This document shows, piece after piece, positions 1-10,839 of a stretch of 10,839 nt of DNA. This stretch comes from a virus. A program made the translations under genes and the position numbers. Each line of letters opens with the position of its first letter. The first letter of the stretch is position 1. The notes under the pieces were generated by a model, which did not search any database, was not told where the DNA came from, and saw only the letters and a program-made list of their open reading frames with translations. The DNA lies in UHGV virus genome UHGV-0134099. The stretch is one strand, 5' to 3'.

Positions 1-40
1 AAACAACTTTTTGTCTTTTTACCTTCCCGTTTCGCTCAAG
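1..40. other. Host chromosomal flank (bacterial B' side of the lambda attB locus)
   Basis: Reverse complement of 1-40 continues the remembered E. coli attB B' arm (cttgagcgaaacgggaaggtaaaaagac...). No ORF. Identity is from memory of the attB sequence, not a search. Confidence 0.6.
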
Positions 41-200
41 TTAGTATAAAAAAGCTGAACGTGAAACATTAAAAATCATTAATATCAATGCGTTATGATG
101 ATTTTTGTCTAAATAATAGACTACATAATACTGCAAAACACAGCATATGCAGTCACTATGAATCAACTACTTAGATGGCATTAGTGACCTGTAACAGAGC
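41..200. other. attR: Prophage attR (P-O-B' hybrid): 15-bp lambda-type core at 41-55 plus phage P arm with arm-type Int binding sites
   Basis: Positions 41-55 ttagtataaaaaagc are the reverse complement of the lambda core GCTTTTTTATACTAA. The left flank (31-40) matches the bacterial B' arm and the right flank (56 onward, ctgaacg...) matches the lambda P arm. Arm-type motifs cagtcactatg (150-160) and attagtgacct (180-190) match lambda P2/P1 Int arm sites. The intervening AT-rich sequence is diverged but collinear with the lambda P arm. Confidence 0.8.
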
Positions 201-241
201 ATTAGCGCAAGGTGATTTTTGTCTTCTTGCGCTAATTTTTT
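201..241 (+). terminator. sib: sib/tI-like intrinsic terminator and retroregulator hairpin in the P arm
   Basis: Perfect 11-bp inverted repeat attagcgcaag (201-211) / cttgcgctaat (226-236) followed by a T6 run (236-241) on the + strand. Position distal to the core on the P-arm side and orientation match lambda sib/tI. Confidence 0.6.
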
Positions 242-361
242 GTCAACATACTGGGTTATCTGAATTTACAACCATGCTCAGTATCTCGATAAGCGCAGAG
301 AAATGATGCAGTGGTGGGCGGACTGGCTGGACGAAAAGGCAAAATAAAGTGTTCCTAGCAA

Positions 362-1135
362 TTAGATGGGCTTGAATTTCTCCCCCCACGACTTTGCCTG
401 TTCTTTAAACCTGGCGCTGACATCACGAGACCATATTTTTCCGGCAACACTCCTGGCTGTTGCCGGAACGCCGCTAAGCATGCTAAATCTTTCGCACGAT
501 TTTGTGACGACAGCGCCTGCAGCAACTATAGAACACGCTCCAATGCTTACATTTTTTGTTATGCATACATTTTGTCCTATCCAGCAGTGTGGTTCTATAA
601 CTATAGGTTTCGATGGTGAATTAACTATTTCCATTGAGTCAATGTCATAAATAGGGTGGCCATCAGTCGCGCGGATTGTGATGCCAAAAGAAAACATGCA
701 GTCATCGCCAATAATTATTGACTTATTGGTATTTGAATTAAAACCCGTTGTCCATAAATTACTTGATGTTGTTGTGACGCCATTACCTACAAAAACGGCG
801 TCTCCACTTTCAACAACTGAAATATTCACGTTAATCAATTTACAAAAATTCCCAACATATGCCACCCCATCATTGCCATACATTTGGATCTTTGTGTTTC
901 TGCAAAGCGTCTTTTCACCTATGTAAACTCTTGAGTTCTTTGAGTTTCCCATAAATGTTACAGCAATACCATTTGGTATTTCAGAGCAACCATTAAGATA
1001 AATTAAATTGCTATCATCGCCATTAACGCCAAGCTCAGAGGGTTTATATGCAGTAAATGATTCCAAATTAAAATCAGAAATGCATGTTTTTATTATTTGG
1101 AAGTTATCTTCAATAACTTTGTTTGCCTGGCTCAC
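362..1135 (-). CDS. Hexapeptide-repeat (left-handed beta-helix) acetyltransferase, LacA/Mac/WcaF/NeuO-like; candidate lysogenic-conversion enzyme
   Basis: The C-terminal half carries tandem hexapeptide motifs (IIIGDDCMFSFGITIRATDGHPIY ... IVIEPHCWIGQNVCITKNVSIGACSIVAAGAVVTKS) with the catalytic-His context (TDGHP) typical of sugar O-acetyltransferases. The ORF track starts at a TTG at 1150; I prefer the GTG at 1135, which has an AGGAG Shine-Dalgarno 6 nt upstream (1142-1146). The gene is AT-rich compared with neighbouring phage genes. Confidence 0.8.
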   Translation of the reverse strand: MSQANKVIEDNFQIIKTCISDFNLESFTAYKPSELGVNGDDSNLIYLNGCSEIPNGIAVTFMGNSKNSRVYIGEKTLCRNTKIQMYGNDGVAYVGNFCKLINVNISVVESGDAVFVGNGVTTTSSNLWTTGFNSNTNKSIIIGDDCMFSFGITIRATDGHPIYDIDSMEIVNSPSKPIVIEPHCWIGQNVCITKNVSIGACSIVAAGAVVTKSCERFSMLSGVPATARSVAGKIWSRDVSARFKEQAKSWGEKFKPI

Positions 1136-1166: not shown

Positions 1167-1188
1167 GCGCCTTTACAAAAAAAGGCGC
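1167..1188 (-). terminator. Hairpin downstream of the tailspike gene (possible weak terminator or 5'UTR structure of the acetyltransferase gene)
   Basis: 8-bp stem gcgccttt / aaaggcgc with a 6-nt loop. On the - strand it is followed by aTGTTTATTT, an imperfect U-tract. It lies between the tailspike stop and the acetyltransferase start. Confidence 0.35.
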
Positions 1189-1224
1189 AATGATTATATG
1201 ATGGTATATGCGTCTCCTTTCACA

Positions 1225-1264: not shown

Positions 1265-3352
1265 TTATGACAGATTTACGTTAACTCTGAGGTTAGCCCT
1301 GTCAGGGTTACTGTCTCCAGTATCAACGCGGTAACCAACCACAACATCGGTGGCGGTGACGTCCTTCACCCACGTCCGAACTGTTGACGTGGTTGGAGTA
1401 GACCTGTCATCTATCGTTAACTGTACTTGCCTGAAAGCTGGCGTATACAGAAATCGATGAGGGATGCTGACGGTCTTGTCTCCAGCTGTTGATATATCCA
1501 GGTTTGCGCTTAATCGCTGGCTTGTTGAATACCCAACGTTATTTACAGACGCAGAAATATTCCAGTTTTGACTCTTGCCAAGATCCGGTGAGTCGCCTGT
1601 GAATGGAACCTGCCCGGTTAACATTTCCATGGTCAGATTCACGTTTTCTGATGCAGGTTGCCCGGTAGAAACAAACCCAGTTGTGCAGCGATAAATAGAG
1701 CCGGTAATGTTGTTCCCGCGCAACGAGTTCGTTGGCGATACGCGCCTCAAACCAACTGTGCACGTTCTGGCGTTAAATATTACCGTCTGTCCTGCTCCAG
1801 CCAGATGCACCAAATCACCATTGCAGTTTTTGCCGGACACCTTCAACATGCCACCCACCGATGATGATGAGTACAGACCAATCCCTGAATACAGACTCCC
1901 TGCCTCAGTATCACCTGATGGTGCCGTTGAGTTGGAGTAGTTCAGGTCAACCTGGGCGTCATTTGTTACTACCACTGCTGTTGAGCCAACAACCCTGGCT
2001 ACCTGGGTTATCGTCCGTTTACAGGTGACACGGCAAACAAACCCGGCAGATGCCGCAATTGTAACACCATCAAAAGAGGCGTTTGGTAGCGAGTATGTCG
2101 GAATCGCACCCTTCCAGTTTGGATGTAACAGACTCAGGTTACGAATATCGAAAAATGCAGAGCCATAAGTATTGGCGCTAATGTTTACCTGCGACCTGGA
2201 GCTTTCAGCGATAATCCTACCGCCTTCTGATAATCGCACAGTGTTCCGTGTTCTGAACGCTGTACCAGACCAGGCAGCGTACGTGTGAACATCACCTATT
2301 TCAATATTTGCTCCATCAATAACAATACCGTCTACCTCTTCACCAGGGTACACAACTGATGTCGCCGCGGCTGTTTCTGCTGCCGGACGCGGCAGTATTC
2401 CGGCTCGTCCGATCCAAGCTTTTCTCAGCATCCCGTCGTTCGGCCCCTGGATGATAATTCCCTCCCCACCGAAATCACGACCAACAATACTGATGTCATA
2501 AACCGCAATTCTTGATGCGCTGTTTTCTGCACCAGGATTTTTGAACCACGCCCCCACGCCAGCAACGTTGTTTAGTAGAATATCGATAGTGAACCCGAAT
2601 CCCTGCACCTCAAGCCCATTGCCAGTGGTATTACCAAGTGTACCGGATGCAGAATTCCAGGCGCTGGTGAAGTAATTGCAATCGATGCCAAGTTTTGTTA
2701 TTTCGAAATTATTCGCATTTGCTATTACAGCAGTAGCATTTGTCCCTACTATTTGTTTTAAAGTAGTTTGCGTGTATCCAGATCCATTAATAATACATCC
2801 ATCTGGTATTGTTAGCGTGCTAAATAAATATATCCCAGGAGGTATGTGGACGTCCAGCGTATTTATTGCCGCTTGTAATGCGGATGTATCATCGTTTACT
2901 CCATCACCTTTTGCTCCGTAATACTGCGGTGTCTTTCTTAATGCTTCGTAAACACTTGACTCACCATAACCAATATTTTTAGAACCACCAGGTGAAGACA
3001 ATCGTTGCTCCAACTGATCAGGGTCATACTTCAGCACATTCGGGTAATAAAACTGCTGCACACCATACGCATCGTATACAGCCATAGAATGGCCTTGCAC
3101 AGTTACGAACTTGGCAATCTGCCCGTTATATACAGGGTAACCAGCAGCGTTAATGATGATTGGCTGTGCAACAGGAACGTGAGAACCGTCTTCGTTCTCC
3201 ACATAAACCTGGATCTGGTTTTCAGTATTTACCGGATCAGTGTCAATTTTTCCGATATAAATCTTTCCATTAGCTACGGCTTTAAAAGAACGAGCCATAG
3301 TGAAGAGTTGCGAAGGCATCGATACGATCACATTGGCTGTAATGTCTGTCAT
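1265..3352 (-). CDS. P22-type tailspike protein (gene 9 homolog): conserved head-binding N-domain, divergent receptor-binding beta-helix domain
   Basis: The N-terminus [13 protein letters not shown]...[20 protein letters not shown]...[15 protein letters not shown]...NVLKYDPDQ matches the P22/Sf6/HK620 tailspike head-binding domain and YDPDQ hinge as I remember them. The remaining roughly 580 aa are Gly/Ser/Thr/Asn-rich with repetitive beta-helix character and unlike the P22 endorhamnosidase. AGGAG-like Shine-Dalgarno (GGAG) 9 nt upstream of the ATG. Confidence 0.9.
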
Positions 3353-3452: not shown

Positions 3453-4331
3453 TCAGTAGTTATGTACTGAAGGAGGTAATTCTTTATTCTTAAGTCTCAT
3501 CCATGCGGAAAGATTCGTTGGTCCGTCTGGCTCATTGATATCAACATCTCGTGAGTGATTGATTAAAACGTCTCTCGCTATATCGATAATACGGGAGAAC
3601 TCATAACCGCAGTCATGACATCTGCCGGAATAGTTCGATTGAATTTGTTTTAGCGCCGGATACAGTTCGCGGAATAATGCCTGTGAACGGTTGGCATAAT
3701 CCCATAGCCATACAAGGCTGTTTGCTTCTTTTGCAGAAAGCTCGTTTGCTTTCTTCTCTTGTTTGCCGATAAACTCGCCTTCAAGCACTACCCTGTGGAT
3801 GTACTCTACGGCCAGCGGGATTTGTTCAATTGAAAGTTCATCAATGCTGTCAATACCAAAACGCTGATGAACCATATTGTATGCATCGTCATAGCGAAGT
3901 CCTTTCTTTCCTACCAGCATGTTTACTGCATCGCGTAGCGGCGTTCTTTCCTCAACAGTGGTTTTCTTGCCTTTCACATACTCGCCATGTTTGCGAATTG
4001 AAGGTAGAACTTCTGCTGTTACCCACTTGCGGAATTTGTGCGGGACCGAACCTTTATTGACAGCATCGCGGCAGCGCAGAACCAATGTATACATACCTGA
4101 TTCGCTAACAATGCTTAGATTCTGCTCACCACCAAGGGTGTAACTTAAAGTTACTCCCTTTTCATCGTCATCAAGTGCAGTAAGCGCCTTGCGTGAGTTA
4201 GTCAGGGTTAAAGCATCACAAACATCTTTTGCTACAAACCACGGCTCACCGCATTTGTTGATGACGCGGATTTCACTGTCGCCGAATTTGAAGATGGTGA
4301 AATCGTTTTGTGCCTTTGCTATACTTTTCAT
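3453..4331 (-). CDS. ant: Antirepressor Ant (P22 immI region)
   Basis: Position immediately downstream of arc, about 290 aa, with conserved motifs shared with P22 Ant as remembered ([34 protein letters not shown]). I chose the ATG at 4331 (MKSIAKAQ...), which has an AGGAAA Shine-Dalgarno 7 nt upstream; the ORF-track start at 4397 is an upstream in-frame extension through the arc-ant spacer. Confidence 0.85.
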
Positions 4332-4400
4332 GTCAATATTTCCTAATCCGATTTGTTGATACCGAAGCCCTGACTGTTCCCGCAGTTGGGGCTTCAACTT
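4332..4400 (+). ncRNA. sar: Candidate sar antisense RNA (about 69 nt) complementary to the ant translation-initiation region
   Basis: An extended -10 promoter (TGcTATACT, 4317-4325) on the + strand inside the 5' end of ant would start transcription near 4332. A hairpin gaagccc (4364-4370) / gggcttc (4389-4395) lies at the 3' end. The implied length of about 69 nt, and the location in the arc-ant spacer opposite the ant RBS, match P22 sar as I recall it. Confidence 0.5.
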
Positions 4401-4561
4401 TACGCGCCAATGCGCCCTTCCTTCTTAAAGCTTTCCATTACTCTCTGATAAATCTCAGAGTTAACAGACCGACCATTCTCTTCCGCCACCTTGCGTACCA
4501 AATCCAATACTTCTTTAGGCCACCGCAAATTGAACTGCGGCATCTTGCTCATTCCTTTCAT
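4400..4561 (-). CDS. arc: Arc repressor (ribbon-helix-helix), essentially identical to P22 Arc
   Basis: Translation from the ATG at 4561 gives [53 protein letters not shown], 53 aa, differing from remembered P22 Arc at one position (R16K). The ORF-track N-terminal extension to 4624 is rejected because it would read through the operators and promoter. Confidence 0.95.
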
Positions 4562-4651: not shown

Positions 4652-4906
4652 ATGGCTAGAGATGATCCGCACTTTAACTTCCGTATGCCTTTGGAAGTAA
4701 GAGAAAAATTGAAATTAAGAGCCGAGGCTAACGGAAGGTCAATGAACTCTGAGTTATTACAAATCGTTCAGGATGCACTATCAAAACCATCACCGATTAC
4801 AGGATATCGCGACGAAGCTGAACGCTTGGCTGATCAGCAGGCTGAGCAGTTCAAGGCTATAGTGTTTGAGACACTTAAAAAGATTTATGAAAAGGATTTG
4901 AAATGA
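4652..4906 (+). CDS. mnt: Mnt repressor (maintenance of lysogeny; represses Pant)
   Basis: MARDDPHFNFRMPLEVREKLKLRAEANGRSMNSELLQIVQDALSKPSP... matches P22 Mnt as remembered, with a ribbon-helix-helix N-terminus. GGAG Shine-Dalgarno 7 nt upstream. The stop codon overlaps the next gene's start (ATGA at 4903-4906). Confidence 0.95.
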   Translation: MARDDPHFNFRMPLEVREKLKLRAEANGRSMNSELLQIVQDALSKPSPITGYRDEAERLADQQAEQFKAIVFETLKKIYEKDLK

Positions 4907-5238
4907 GATTTCTATCACTGTTCTTGTTAGCAGTTGTCTCTTCTTCCAGTGCTGAGCTGCGCGAGCTTCAAACGGGTAATGACCTTCTTTACAACATTCA
5001 ACAAGGTAAAAAGGGTGATGATTTTTCATCGCTTTACATTACTGGATATTTGCGCGGAGTAACTGACTCATTGATACTAATTGGTTCTCTATGTCCTCCT
5101 GATGGCGTTGACATGTATCAATACACCGATATCGTTGAGAAATATCTAAACAAAAACCCAGAATCAAGAAATGAGAGTGCAGTTATACTAACCGCCCTAG
5201 CAGTAGGAAAAACATTTCCGTGCAAAAAGAATCAATAA
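4903..5238 (+). CDS. Small secreted (signal-peptide) protein, function unknown; translationally coupled to mnt
   Basis: N-terminal signal peptide MRFLSLFLLAVVSSSSA with a predicted cleavage site before ELRE. Mature protein is about 94 aa with two Cys (possible disulfide). AAGGA Shine-Dalgarno 6 nt upstream; ATG overlaps the mnt stop. It occupies the locus between gene 16 and immI where P22 has sieA. Confidence 0.7.
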   Translation: MRFLSLFLLAVVSSSSAELRELQTGNDLLYNIQQGKKGDDFSSLYITGYLRGVTDSLILIGSLCPPDGVDMYQYTDIVEKYLNKNPESRNESAVILTALAVGKTFPCKKNQ

Positions 5239-5253
5239 CAATAAGGGCTTAAA

Positions 5254-5643
5254 ATGAAATTGATTATAGCAATGGCTTTCCTTGTCTTCTCGTTTTCTGT
5301 CTCAGCAGAGTGCTGGGTCGTTGGAGATATGCACGGAATAAGCTATTCAGAACGAAATAATTTTCAACCGGAAGAAGATGGTTTTAGTGGAACATTCATC
5401 ATTAAGACAAACGGTGAAGATGCCAGTATCACATATTCTGGGACGGATGCGGGCGGCATGGCTTACAAAGCATTGTCTAAAAACTCCATCATTGGAATCG
5501 GCGCGAATGGCGAAACTCAACGAGTTATCGACTCATGGGTAATACATCCTAATGGAACAGTTTTAATGTCGAAAACCATTTCTGGTTATGGGAATATGGA
5601 TTCAACCAAAGCTTTTGTTGGAAAAGTAAAAAGAAAATGTTAA
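5254..5643 (+). CDS. Small secreted (signal-peptide) protein, function unknown; second gene of the mnt-coupled cassette
   Basis: Signal peptide MKLIIAMAFLVFSFSVSA followed by ECWVV. Mature protein is about 111 aa, Gly/Ser/Thr-rich, with Cys near both ends. AAGGG Shine-Dalgarno 6 nt upstream; 15-bp gap from the preceding gene. Confidence 0.7.
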   Translation: MKLIIAMAFLVFSFSVSAECWVVGDMHGISYSERNNFQPEEDGFSGTFIIKTNGEDASITYSGTDAGGMAYKALSKNSIIGIGANGETQRVIDSWVIHPNGTVLMSKTISGYGNMDSTKAFVGKVKRKC

Positions 5644-5667: not shown

Positions 5668-7509
5668 TTACTGCTGTGTTGCCTCAGTAGCAAGCAGCGG
5701 CCTGATGGCATTTGCAGCGTTACTCAACGCTCTTTCATAGGCTGGCGTTCCAGCTTTAGTGTTTGCCAGACGTAAGAGAGCATTCCTTGCTGCTTTGGAC
5801 TCATACAAACGCATCATTGCACCAAAGCCAGCCTCAAGCCCCATTGATACACCAAGAGTCGCAGTTGCGCCAATCGTCCTTATCCTGTTGGCTTGTGATT
5901 GCCCCGTCTGAGTTACTACATTTGCGGTGTCTGACCTTGCTGTTTGCTGTAGAACTTCATGAAGAGCATCAAGCTCTTTCATGTGCTTTCCAGAAAAAAT
6001 AGTGTTGTAAATTTCACCGCCTGACTGAGATTTCAGCTTATTAACTTCAGTGATGAACTTGGCTGGAGAGTCACCGGCCTTTTCCGCTATTTTGCTGACG
6101 TAAGCTGCACGCATAGCATCTTTCCCTTTATCATCCAGGGCGCTCCATATTCGTTTCACGTCAGATGGTTTTCTGCTTAATACAACGGTATTTATAAGTT
6201 CAGGACTGGCTTCACTGCTTGCCTTGTTGAGTTTGTTAGCAATGTTTTTATTAAGCACCTTATTATAAACGTTTGCATAATCGGAATTTGCTTTAAGGTA
6301 TTTTGCTGCGTCTGATGCACCGAGGTTTTTAGCAACTGCGTTACGAAGGTCTTTTGACATTGCATTCTCTACCATATTGGTAGCTGCTTTTGCCTGGTTG
6401 GGGAAGACCATAGCATCTCCCTGAACATTAGATCTAAATGCTGTTCTGTGCTGACGCAAGAGATCAAACGTAACATCCAAATCAGTTGCAGGGTTTGCTA
6501 ATTCTTCACGTAGGTTACGCAAGGATGTAAGCAGGCTTTGATTGGCAGACGTCCCAAGTCGTTCCTGTCTTGCGATCGCTGTATTCAGAGCATTCATGGT
6601 ATTTGTGGTATCAACTGCGGCATTACCCATTTTATTGGTGACGTCATTGATAACAGCGCCAGCGGCATCCTTCCTCCCCCTTAACGTGGTGGTCAGAGAT
6701 TTCACCACATCATCAGGGTTGTACTCACCAAAACGGTCAAAATAATTACTTACCAGCTTACTACGCGTTGCATATTGCTCCGCTCGCTTTGAGCCTGTCC
6801 CGAGCAAAGCCCCCTCGGCATCCTGAGTAAGGCCGCGAGTGAAAGCATTTTTCGGCGGGATAACATCAGATGTCATTGGTGTCACGCCCATCGATTCTGA
6901 TGTGGCAATTTTCTTCGCCACTTCTGGCGCAATATCACCTTTTATAGCCGTTATTCCACGCCCTATTCCCTTTGCTGCGGCGGAAAGAACACCCTGAGCG
7001 GCAAGGTTAACTCCGGCATTTTTAGCTGCATTTTGTGCGAAATCGCCTTTCTGATTTGCGGCCTCTGCCAATGATCCAATAGCCATGCTTCCTGCCGTTC
7101 CAACTCCTGGAACTAAATACCCACCAATTGTTTCACCGGCTTGTGCGTAGGGGTCTGTCGGTCTGTCTACTGGACGATAAACATCATCCAAAACCTTGGG
7201 TCCACCAAGCCCCTGGCTGATTGCATTAATCAGACTTGCGCCGCCCTGCAATACGTCAAATGGTATGTTTACCAGACCACGACCAGCCTGTTCTGCAATT
7301 TGCCCTGCACTTTGACCACCAGTGAGCCAATCGCCAGCTTGTTGCATCAATGATGGTTCTTCCCGTGTTGGTGCATTATTGGCCTGATTAACTGTTTGTT
7401 GCTGAACAGCCTGACCAGCAAAATACTCATCAATGGCGGTGCCAATATCTTCGGTGCTCGTACCATCAGGAAAGGTAAATGTCTTACCGTTTGCAGTTAC
7501 TTTCATCAT
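5668..7509 (-). CDS. Ejection (injection) protein gp16 homolog, P22-like
   Basis: 613 aa (P22 gp16 is about 609 aa). Gene order 7-20-16 upstream of immI matches P22. Ala/Gly/Gln-rich. Start overlaps the gp20 stop (ATGA, 7506-7509). Confidence 0.75.
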
Positions 7510-8921
7510 TCCACCGTAAATTGAATGCCTGATTTTGAGGTATATGATCCAACCTGATTCCGTGGTTCTCCTGAAGGTGTCGAATCTTGTGCTGGCGCTG
7601 CGTCAGTATTCATTGACATATACCGCTTAACGGCACTCCCCAATGATTCACCTTTTTTAACATCCAACCCCAATATCTGACCGCCATTACGCGATTGTCC
7701 TGGATTGCCATTCGCGCTCATCCACTCGGCTTTAAACTCATTAAACTGCGCGTTTCGTCGCTCAAGGTTTGCCATCGCATCAAGCCATCTTGCGACCGTC
7801 TCAGGGTTATCCATGTCAGTTGGTGCACCCTGCCGAACGATCTCAACGTCTTTATCCGTTGCGGGGCCGGGAGGTAGGAATTTAAGAACCTGACTGTTAA
7901 CAAGGGCATTTTGGCGGATGCGCAAATCACGCAATGTTGTATCGCTTCCGGTAAGTTTTGCGAACATGTTCTGTGCGTTACCGAACAAACCTGTCGTTGG
8001 TTTTTCTGCTCTGAACTGTTGAGCAAGCGCACTCATAGAATTGGCTGAGTTTGATGATGCTGTAGCATTGTTTACAGCCGTCTCGATGCCTTTTTCCATG
8101 TTTACTGACAGCTTAGGTGCTTCGCTAATCAACTGCTGAGCCTTTTCCTGTGCTTGCTGCATCTTAAACCCGAACTCTTGCTGATCCAGAGCCAAGCGTT
8201 GTGCTGCGATATTGTGTCCAGTCATTGCTGACTGATAGGAAAGGTTTTGCCCTCTCGCCTGAAGTGCTTCTCCAGCCTGATTGCTGCGGATTGTCTCTGC
8301 CAGCCTGCCTCGGTCAATTTCACGACCAGCCATCTTATCCTGAACAGCAAACGCCTTTTCTGGTCCAAGCGCACCGAGAGACATAGTAGTCAGCATGTGT
8401 GATAGCTGCTCTGGATTCTGGATACCTGTCTGAATCATCCAGTCAGCATTCGCCCCCACGCGATTTAACCCGTCCTTGTTGTCAGTAATGAATTTACTGT
8501 AGGCTTCCGGTCCCTGAGAAAGAGCGACGTTAGCCCTCATGGCTAACTCGCCCATATCGTTGCGTTGCTGCTCATTAAGACCGGAAAACGCCTGTTGTGC
8601 CTGTGCAACAAACGCTGGATTTTCCTGGGCAAACTTAAATAGTCCAGATGGATCACCAGAAGCCCATGCATCAGCGTGAACCTTATTGAACGCACTAATA
8701 GCTTTCTGTTGCTGTTCCTGATTGTAAATATCAGCAACTCCAGCCAGACCACGTAACGCGGTCAGACCAACGTTATTTGCACCTGAGCGAGCCAGTTCAT
8801 TGTTTTCGCGGATCAGGCCAAGCGTTGCGTTAATGTCGCTTGCCTTTGGCGCATTCTCATTTTGCGTACCGATGCCAGCAAGAAAACCACCAGAATTAAT
8901 ACCCTGTTGCCACGTAGCCAT
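7506..8921 (-). CDS. Ejection (injection) protein gp20 homolog, P22-like
   Basis: 471 aa, the same length as P22 gp20 as I recall. Sits between the gp7 and gp16 homologs. AAGGGG Shine-Dalgarno upstream of the ATG. Confidence 0.75.
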
Positions 8922-8930
8922 GATTACCCC

Positions 8931-9593
8931 TTAATAAAGCAGTGAACCAAGCAGACCGATACCAGCACCGATACCAGCACCCCACGGAGTTGATGAACCA
9001 ATTAATTTCGCAAGTCCAGCCCCAGCAATAGCACCAGACGCACCTCCGCCAATAGCAGATTGCATTGCTGATGGTCTGTTGGCATTTGCCGCTGCAAGAG
9101 CCGCACTTTGCTGCGAAATCTGACTCATGTTGTTGGCATATGTCTGCCCGGCGTTTGCCTGACCTTGCAGTGCGCCAAGACCAATGTTTGCCAGATTCTG
9201 GTAGTTGTTCATCTGACCAGACAGCCACTGCTGACCAAGCGTTGGTGCGATTGTTGCTAACTGATTACCGGTTGCGGTGGAACCCAATCCACCTGTTGCT
9301 TCCGCTGCCGCCAGACTCTGATAGCGAGCCTGACCAGCAAGATCTTTGTACTGCTGAGAGTTGTAATACTGGTTAAGTGCCTGACCTTGCCCTTCCAGAG
9401 ACGATAAGTTCTCGAGGCTGCCGACATACTTATCAGCCAGAGGAGTAAACGGCTTTAGGTTATTCATGATGGTGTTGAACTGCTGATTTTGCAGGTCTGC
9501 TGCATACTTCGTAAGCGTCGTCTCAGCACCGTCTGGCAGATCCTGATATTCCTGAGAGGATAGTGGACACCAAATATGGTGGACGCTATCCAT
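8931..9593 (-). CDS. Ejection protein gp7 homolog, 5' end interrupted by the IS66-family insertion (ORF as drawn is probably a truncated or chimeric gene)
   Basis: Gly/Ala/Gln-rich C-terminal region and position match P22 gp7. The ORF's ATG (9593) overlaps the IS tnpA start (9592) on the opposite strand, so the first codons are encoded by IS DNA. The native gp7 5' end and the upstream late genes must lie beyond the IS, outside the window. Confidence 0.6.
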   Translation of the reverse strand: MDSVHHIWCPLSSQEYQDLPDGAETTLTKYAADLQNQQFNTIMNNLKPFTPLADKYVGSLENLSSLEGQGQALNQYYNSQQYKDLAGQARYQSLAAAEATGGLGSTATGNQLATIAPTLGQQWLSGQMNNYQNLANIGLGALQGQANAGQTYANNMSQISQQSAALAAANANRPSAMQSAIGGGASGAIAGAGLAKLIGSSTPWGAGIGAGIGLLGSLLY

Positions 9594-9996
9594 GAAATCA
9601 TTAACCGCAGTGCGTAAAAAAAGCCCTAATTATCCCGTTGAGTTCAAAATCAAAATGGTTGAACTCTCGCATCGACCAGAGATCTCCGTAGCGCAACTCG
9701 CTCGTGAGCATGGGATCAACGATAATTTGCTGTTCAAGTGGCGCCAGTACTGGCGCGAAGGAAAACTACGTCCTCCTTCAACAACAGAAAACAACGTGCC
9801 TGAGCTGCTCCCGATAACACTTGATACCGAAGATGTTGTCCCTGCAACCTCCCCCCGGTCACAACCTGTAGCTGCTGCGGCACCTGAATCACTCAATATC
9901 AGCTGTGAAGTGACGTTCCGGCACGGATCACTCCGTCTGAATGGTGCCATCAGCGAAAATATCCTGAACCTGCTGATACGGGAGCTCAAACGTTGA
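9592..9996 (+). CDS. tnpA: IS66-family accessory protein TnpA (orf1)
   Basis: 134 aa with a helix-turn-helix-like segment (SVAQLAREHGINDNLLFKWRQYW) typical of IS66 orf1. Stop overlaps the tnpB start (TTGA). Confidence 0.8.
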   Translation: MKSLTAVRKKSPNYPVEFKIKMVELSHRPEISVAQLAREHGINDNLLFKWRQYWREGKLRPPSTTENNVPELLPITLDTEDVVPATSPRSQPVAAAAPESLNISCEVTFRHGSLRLNGAISENILNLLIRELKR

Positions 9997-10340
9997 TCCC
10001 ATTACCATCAGGGACCAAAATCTGGCTGGTTGCCGGCATTACCGACATGCGAAACGGCTTCAATGGTCTGGCCGCAAAGGTGCAGACGACGCTGAAAGAC
10101 GATCCGATGTCAGGTCACGTTTTTATCTTCCGTGGGCGTAATGGCAGTCAGGTAAAGCTCCTCTGGTCTACCGGCGATGGACTGTGTCTGCTGACCAAAC
10201 GGCTGGAGCGCGGCCGCTTCGCCTGGCCGTCAGCCCGGGATGGCAAAGTGTTCCTCACACCGGCACAGCTGGCGATGCTCCTTGAAGGTATCGACTGGCG
10301 GCAGCCTAAAAGACTGCTTACGTCACTGACTATGTTGTAG
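9993..10340 (+). CDS. tnpB: IS66-family accessory protein TnpB (orf2)
   Basis: MIPLPSGTKIWLVAGITDMRNGFNGLAAKVQ...FIFRGRNGSQVKLLW...GLCLLTKRLE matches the highly conserved IS66 Orf2 family. Apparent TTG start overlapping the tnpA stop. Confidence 0.85.
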   Translation: MIPLPSGTKIWLVAGITDMRNGFNGLAAKVQTTLKDDPMSGHVFIFRGRNGSQVKLLWSTGDGLCLLTKRLERGRFAWPSARDGKVFLTPAQLAMLLEGIDWRQPKRLLTSLTML

Positions 10341-10388
10341 GCCTCTTTATCCTGGTCGACGCTGAATGAGCCTGGTAATATACCCGGT

Positions 10389-10839
10389 ATGAACAGCTTA
10401 CTTCCTGACGATATCGATGAACTGAAACGTCTCCTTGCCGAACAGGAGGCGCTGAACCGTGCCCTTCTGGAAAAGCTGAACGAGCGTGAACGCGAAATAG
10501 ATCACCTGCAGGCGCAACTGGATAAGCTGCGCCGGATGAACTTCGGCAGCCGCTCCGAAAAAGTCTCCCGCCGTATCGCGCAGATGGAAGCCGACCTTAA
10601 GCAGTTGCAGAAAGAAAGCGATACCCTTACCGGCCGGGTGGATGACCCGGCCGTGCAGCGCCCGCTGCGGCAGACCCGTACCCGCAAACCGTTCCCTGAA
10701 TCACTTCCCCGTGACGAAAAACGGCTGCTGCCGGCAGCGTCATGCTGCCCGGAATGTGGTGGTGCGCTGAGTTACCTGGGTGAAGATGCCGCCGAACAGC
10801 TGGAGCTGATGCGCAGCGCCTTCCGGGTTATCCGGACAG
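10389..10839 (+). CDS. tnpC: IS66-family transposase TnpC (orf3), N-terminal 150 aa only; continues beyond the window
   Basis: Open frame from the ATG at 10389 to the window end: MNSLLPDDIDELKRLLAEQEALNRALLEKLNEREREIDHLQAQL (leucine-zipper-like coiled coil), then CCPECGG zinc-ribbon motif, typical of IS66 transposase N-termini. Absent from the ORF track because no stop is reached. Confidence 0.8.
   Translation, partial: MNSLLPDDIDELKRLLAEQEALNRALLEKLNEREREIDHLQAQLDKLRRMNFGSRSEKVSRRIAQMEADLKQLQKESDTLTGRVDDPAVQRPLRQTRTRKPFPESLPRDEKRLLPAASCCPECGGALSYLGEDAAEQLELMRSAFRVIRT

Follow-up and report, generated by a model that had tools for sequence, protein, structure and literature searches.

The first 241 nts of the window (the whole 10,839-nt stretch of viral DNA under study) are almost certainly attR, in the reverse-complemented order B′-O-P, of one lambdoid prophage, 41 kb long and P22-like (Lederbergvirus-type), that carries a lambda-type integration cassette and is inserted at the canonical lambda attB. 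The joining of lambda-type integration to a P22-like virion is already known and is an ordinary, recurrent mosaic. The only additions that this prophage makes to what is known are an intS scar, a strain-specific acyltransferase and tailspike cassette, and an IS element in gene 7.

The window is 100% identical to positions 3167401–3178239 of the chromosome of E. coli 1368KP (NZ_CM173843.1). There uvrB, bioDCFB, bioA and ybhB lie upstream of attR, and downstream of the window the phage genes continue, to about 41 kb in all, before xis, int and ybhC are reached. The prophage is thus flanked by ybhB on its bio side and ybhC on its gal side, two genes that are adjacent in K-12 MG1655, where their intergenic sequence contains an empty lambda attB. 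Judged on its sequence, the junction in the window is P-O-B′ on the bio side, i.e. attR by the lambda convention.

An earlier note made from the letters of the window had proposed an exact lambda 15-bp core, a bacterial B′ arm, a lambda-like P arm with arm-type Int sites and a sib/tI hairpin, with the core as the boundary of the prophage, and each of these elements is borne out (Table 1). The core occurs exactly, once, on the minus strand; even when 2 mismatches are allowed, a scan of the window would be expected to give 0.04 chance matches. The same 15 nts are found in lambda, 434, Huey and 720R6. To one side, with bioA and ybhB upstream, is host DNA that matches the empty K-12 attB throughout, and to the other the phage P arm begins. 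When set against lambda attP and attB and the E. coli locus, P arm, core and B′ all find their counterparts. From the core to the end of the sib T-run (41–241), the alignment to lambda attP (NC_001416) is gap-free, with 177 of 201 positions identical (88%), and it is through this map that the footprints annotated in lambda were transferred to give the individual sites. A scan with the arm-site consensus (MAGTCACTAT, up to 2 mismatches) found 16 occurrences where 15.95 were expected. Since that count is at chance level, support for the arm sites comes from their in-register homology with lambda and not from counting.

Table 1. Features of the window, in order of position, with the comparison or match on which each assignment is based
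Feature	Position	Strand	Basis
Host B′ arm of lambda attB (ybhB/bio side)	1–40	.	40/40 vs K-12 MG1655 right of core
Core O GCTTTTTTATACTAA, crossover region of attR	41–55	-	single exact match in window
Lambda-type P arm	56–198	-	gap-free colinearity with lambda attP
H2/Xis/Fis stretch	56–139		62/84 (74%) vs lambda
H2 (IHF)	83–95		WATCAANNNNTTR consensus kept; spacer differs from lambda; same position
X2 (Xis)	112–128		15/17 vs lambda; predicted site by position
X1 (Xis)	134–148		13/15 vs lambda; predicted site by position
P2-H1-P1 stretch	140–198		57/59 vs lambda
P2 (lambda 'int 2' footprint)	145–164		20/20; arm site CAGTCACTAT at 150–159
H1 (IHF)	161–173		WATCAANNNNTTR match; identical to lambda; same position
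P1 (lambda 'int 1' footprint)	177–196		19/20; arm site 181–190
sib/tI hairpin and T-run	199–241	+	43/43 vs lambda
intS remnant (argW-type integrase), last 27 codons and stop	264–347	+	25/27 aa vs IntS C-terminus, strain 631
Hexapeptide-repeat acyltransferase gene	362–1135	-	Pfam Hexapep
Tailspike, P22-type	1265–3352	-	Pfam Head_binding PF09008, 1e-65, residues 1–113
Ant, antirepressor (immI)	3453–4331	-	Pfam Bro-N and P22_AR_C
sar antisense RNA (immI)	4333–4399	+	Rfam RF00262, 71.6 bits vs gathering score 43
arc (immI)	4400–4561	-	Pfam Arc 1e-30, 53 aa
mnt (immI)	4652–4906	+	Pfam Arc and Repressor_Mnt
Ejection protein, gp16 position, 613 aa	5668–7506 (ORF to 7509)	-	position of P22 gene 16
Ejection protein gp20	7506–8921	-	Pfam Inj_translocase PF16928, 4.5e-117
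Ejection gene 7, 5′ end cut off by IS	8931–9509	-	Pfam P22_gp7 PF25688, profile 37–229
IS66-family element, ISKpn24-like (tnpA, tnpB, transposase start)	9510–10839	+	RefSeq; extends beyond window

In lambda sib/tI is the retroregulator of int and a terminator for pI transcripts. Its counterpart here folds stably: the plus-strand RNA of 150–262 has a predicted free energy of −35.9 kcal/mol (z = −4.4), a stability reached by none of 200 shuffled sequences, and the sib region of phage 434 is annotated as a terminator. One could ask whether an AT-rich intergenic stretch has come to look like lambda att by chance. The AT-richness is real (the GC content of the att region is 0.34) and is the sole point in favor of such an origin, to which we give no credence in view of the length and gap-free nature of the 201-bp alignment at 88% identity, the exact 15-mer, the matching attL and the cognate Int and Xis.

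The latter come from the other end of the prophage, where the earlier note had suggested looking for a matching attL and int. Both are present in 1368KP. In a 50-kb region of its chromosome (L001) a second exact copy of the core is at 48190–48204, 41,149 bp from the first measured core to core. The P′ arm of this attL is identical to that of lambda at 94 of 95 positions and its B arm to K-12 at 40 of 40. The adjoining Int, the cognate heterobivalent tyrosine integrase, matches lambda Int at 354 of 356 residues (99%) and Xis its lambda counterpart at 70 of 72 (97%). An exact-core scan of the 50-kb region gave no copy besides those of attR and attL, and a tRNA gene search of the same region found none. 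RefSeq annotation places between the two cores one non-redundant set of lambdoid early, lysis and P22-type late genes. The early genes include N, cI-like, cro-like and cII genes, O/P-type replication genes, the nin region and Q, and the same annotation puts head genes of P22 type (for coat, scaffold, portal, gp4 and gp10) within the prophage but outside the window. Together the two cores show that the prophage is one element and explain why int and xis are some 40 kb distant from attR. The core in the window sets the bio-side boundary of the prophage, which is useful mainly for annotation.

Lambda-family integration and a P22-like virion are therefore combined in one prophage as had been proposed, with cognate Int and Xis, the lambda locus and P22-type late genes all in evidence. 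The tailspike, ant-arc-mnt and ejection genes named in the earlier note are present by their Pfam and Rfam matches. Their description as being directly next to att is slightly loose: between sib and the tailspike gene are the remnant of intS and then the 774-bp acyltransferase gene. The ORF at the position of P22 gene 16 gave no Pfam or NCBIfam match in profile searches; the genes that match it elsewhere are labelled P22-gp16 family phage DNA ejection protein in RefSeq. [A gene of the Rap1a/Tai family (type VI secretion immunity-like; 4903–5238, plus strand) is directly downstream of mnt, whose stop codon it overlaps, and is followed by a 104-aa ORF (5329–5643) for which there was no family match. 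The pair is found in several other P22-like prophages, pointing to a moron that is conserved within immI.]

The earlier note carried an implication that the combination is rare. It is not: sequenced genomes show it repeatedly, and one phage that has been isolated and published has it too. That phage is Huey (PQ850609, Lederbergvirus), which was isolated in the BASEL completion study and forms turbid plaques on K-12, indicative of lysogeny (PMC11990801). Like the 1368KP prophage, Huey has a lambda Int (353/356), the exact core, the variant P arm (182/201) and sib, followed by the tail of intS and then the tailspike region, and its genome of about 38.6 kb corresponds to the 1368KP prophage minus the IS. 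It differs in having a UmuD-like gene between att and tailspike, where the 1368KP prophage has the acyltransferase, in its tailspike, in the lack of an IS, and in having no ant-arc-mnt between att and tailspike. A second deposited sequence, vB_EcoP-720R6 (ON470605), is given as a prophage at bioA-ybhB. It and the prophages of E. coli OkiPb01694, numer 3, GB089, UPEC_U013 and HB37 have bioA-ybhB-attR-intS remnant-tailspike-immI-ejection in the same order and orientation as 1368KP, the likeness in the case of OkiPb01694 being 98% identity over 71% of the window. Yet 720R6 and the other P22-like prophages at lambda attB each have their own receptor-binding part of the tailspike and their own cargo between att and tailspike, and none has the acyltransferase of 1368KP. 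[In UPEC_U013 and HB37 an InsQ/TnpB-family RNA-guided endonuclease gene is situated between bioA and ybhB, just outside attB-lambda; no such gene is present between bioA and ybhB in 1368KP or K-12.]

At least 11 complete E. coli genomes other than 1368KP have the ybhB-attR-remnant-tailspike-immI layout, which was verified individually in 12 genomes with the source included. At least 80% of bases 1–339 is carried by 695 of 5,426 complete E. coli genomes, a figure that takes in non-P22 lambdoids (O157:H7, strain B) and so does not count P22-like prophages alone. About 1,200 others have bases 1–243 only.

Lambda itself shares with the 1368KP prophage the core, the host locus (ybhC-ybhB) and the register of P1, H1, P2, X1, X2 and H2, but its virion module is siphoviral and not of the podoviral P22 type. 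Phage 434 (OL657226) has the same core, a P arm that matches at 181 of 201 positions, the sib terminator and the intS tail after sib. It too is a siphovirus, and has NleC/NleH-like effector genes after the att region where the 1368KP prophage has the tailspike. From the other side, the P22-like prophages of argW/IntS type (that of strain 631, and relatives of CUS-3, HK620 and Sf6) have the same late-gene and immI modules but an integrase of another family, with the argW tRNA gene as host site. Gally, an active P22-like phage with an HK022-type cassette of the lambda Int family, was considered as a further attB-lambda case and ruled out: it is inserted at the HK022 site, torS/torT, and is a relative only.

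That P22-like phages interchange integration modules is established, with thrW used by P22 and argU by epsilon34 (PMC2629481), and P22-like prophages are known at about five sites in E. coli, where the lambda site is acknowledged to be a hotspot (PMC3603311). Searches of the literature yielded no paper stating outright that P22-like prophages reside at attB-lambda. The precedent is therefore provided by deposited sequences (Huey, 720R6 and the genomes) together with the statements on swappable modules (PMC2629481, PMC3603311).

It is conceivable that the locus is composite, with attR, sib and the intS remnant left by an older lambda-like siphovirus prophage and the P22-type genes belonging to a second element beside or inside it. 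The lambda attB is indeed busy (a lambda-type attR of some kind was present at the locus in 21 of 60 evenly spaced rows, i.e. in about one third of genomes), and the same P arm and remnant do occur in the non-P22 lambdoids 434, O157:H7 and strain B. However, there are just two exact cores, at the spacing given above, with neither a third att nor a tRNA gene, and what lies between them is a single non-redundant set of lambdoid early and P22 late genes. Furthermore, the identical order of int, attP, sib, remnant and tailspike in the circular genome of Huey means that the cassette belongs to P22-like phages. A composite origin is accordingly very improbable, and a single prophage is the reading kept in what follows.

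If the cassette works as that of lambda does, Int and IHF would recombine phage POP′ with host BOB′ inside the 15-bp core to give attL, next to int and xis, and attR. For excision, Int, Xis, IHF and Fis would assemble on the P arm of attR, which would act with attL. The position of sib would matter too. In the circular phage it would be downstream of int, such that RNase III would cut the int message derived from pL and degradation would follow, and in the prophage, where sib is apart from int, induction would be expected to permit joint expression of Int and Xis. With cis sites, Int and Xis intact, function of the site is plausible.

Though genuine in origin, the att site might be dead and the prophage grounded, whether through divergence of the Xis/Fis region or through regulatory decay. 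Decay of the prophage has begun, as seen from the IS66-family element in gene 7, and the stretch of the P arm from 56 to 139 is only 74% identical to lambda. With 62 of its 84 positions shared, binding of Xis and Fis to the P arm of attR is taken here as an assumption. But P-arm divergence of the same degree in this region is found in 434 and Huey, which are viable phages; P1, P2, H1, the core, the P′ arm and sib have hardly changed; and Int and Xis are intact and 97–99% identical to those of lambda. The IS66-family element, whose transposase gene is completed beyond the window, ends at L001:18984 and is bordered by a clean 8-bp target duplication, GCATACTT, at L001:16502–16509 and 18985–18992, which suggests simple transposition with no later rearrangement. 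Homology to other prophages ends at 9510, and RefSeq gives gene 7 as two partial pieces, one on each side of the IS. We consider a dead site unlikely. A distinction is needed between excision and the making of virions: because gene 7 is interrupted, production of infectious virions is unlikely and the prophage is probably defective, without infectious particles, while with all cis sites and Int and Xis intact it can probably still excise.

Sequence shared with other prophages ends at about 340–347 and resumes at about 3012. The intervening stretch, consisting of the acyltransferase gene and the receptor-binding part of the tailspike, is present in one of the 5,426 complete E. coli genomes, as is the acyltransferase gene considered by itself. 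That gene is of low GC content (0.33–0.37). Its product has sub-threshold NCBIfam matches to the Maa, WbbJ, WcaF and NeuD families and is a distant relative, at 31% identity, of NeuO, the O-acetyltransferase for the K1 capsule that P22-like phage CUS-3 carries, all of which makes it a candidate surface-polysaccharide O-acetyltransferase and lysogenic conversion moron. A NeuO-style heptanucleotide phase-variation repeat was sought at the 5′ end of the gene and not seen. A hairpin with a T-run, TGCGCCTTTTTTTGTAAAGGCGCA (1170–1200, minus strand), separates the stop codon of the tailspike gene from the start of the acyltransferase gene. It is likely a terminator, which would make the acyltransferase a separately expressed unit. 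The receptor-binding part of the tailspike (1265–3012) has 81% protein identity to a tailspike, annotated as an endo-alpha-sialidase, from Shigella phage SF1-1 (146 kb); as read from these comparisons, the P22 head-binding domain has been conserved and the receptor-binding domain exchanged.

The match to lambda gives out just beyond the sib T-run, at about 243. A linker of about 20 nts then joins sib to the intS tail in 434, Huey, 720R6 and other lambda-attB prophages. In 1368KP the DNA identity over 264–339 is 97%, and RefSeq has the remnant as a partial gene with the N-terminus missing. P22-like prophages of argW type have a complete intS in this place, oriented likewise, with argW on one side and the tailspike region on the other, and to the right of the joint HB37 (lambda-attB-type) and strain 631 (argW-type) are colinear, with 97% identity over 421 bp. 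Lambda is without the intS tail but retains the segment that lies beyond the stop codon of intS. The intS tail has the appearance of a scar of integration-module replacement, and on the simplest reading attP and the greater part of intS in an IntS-type P22-like ancestor gave way to a lambda-type xis-int-attP-sib cassette. For the direction and order of this replacement we infer from present-day sequences alone. More tentatively, the scar may be datable. The cassette may have entered an argW/IntS-type P22-like backbone, with cassette and scar only then spreading across lambdoid morphotypes (the carriers include P22-like Huey and 720R6 and the siphovirus 434), a sequence of events in which our confidence falls a little short of the halfway mark.

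For the host strain, the strain-specific cassette of acyltransferase and tailspike receptor-binding part may inform on the surface polysaccharide of 1368KP. Lateral transduction has been described for P22 and Gally (PMC8575938; PMC9928086), and by this route the adjoining chromosome could be mobilised by a prophage at attB-lambda that is P22-like and of pac type, though in 1368KP infectious particles are probably prevented by the IS in gene 7. For the family, the prophage is one more case of lambdoid modular exchange and raises no new question. If the scar reading is true, the surroundings of lambda's own attP would descend from an IntS-type context, and the intS scar could serve as a mark of integration-module exchange between podoviral and siphoviral lambdoids.
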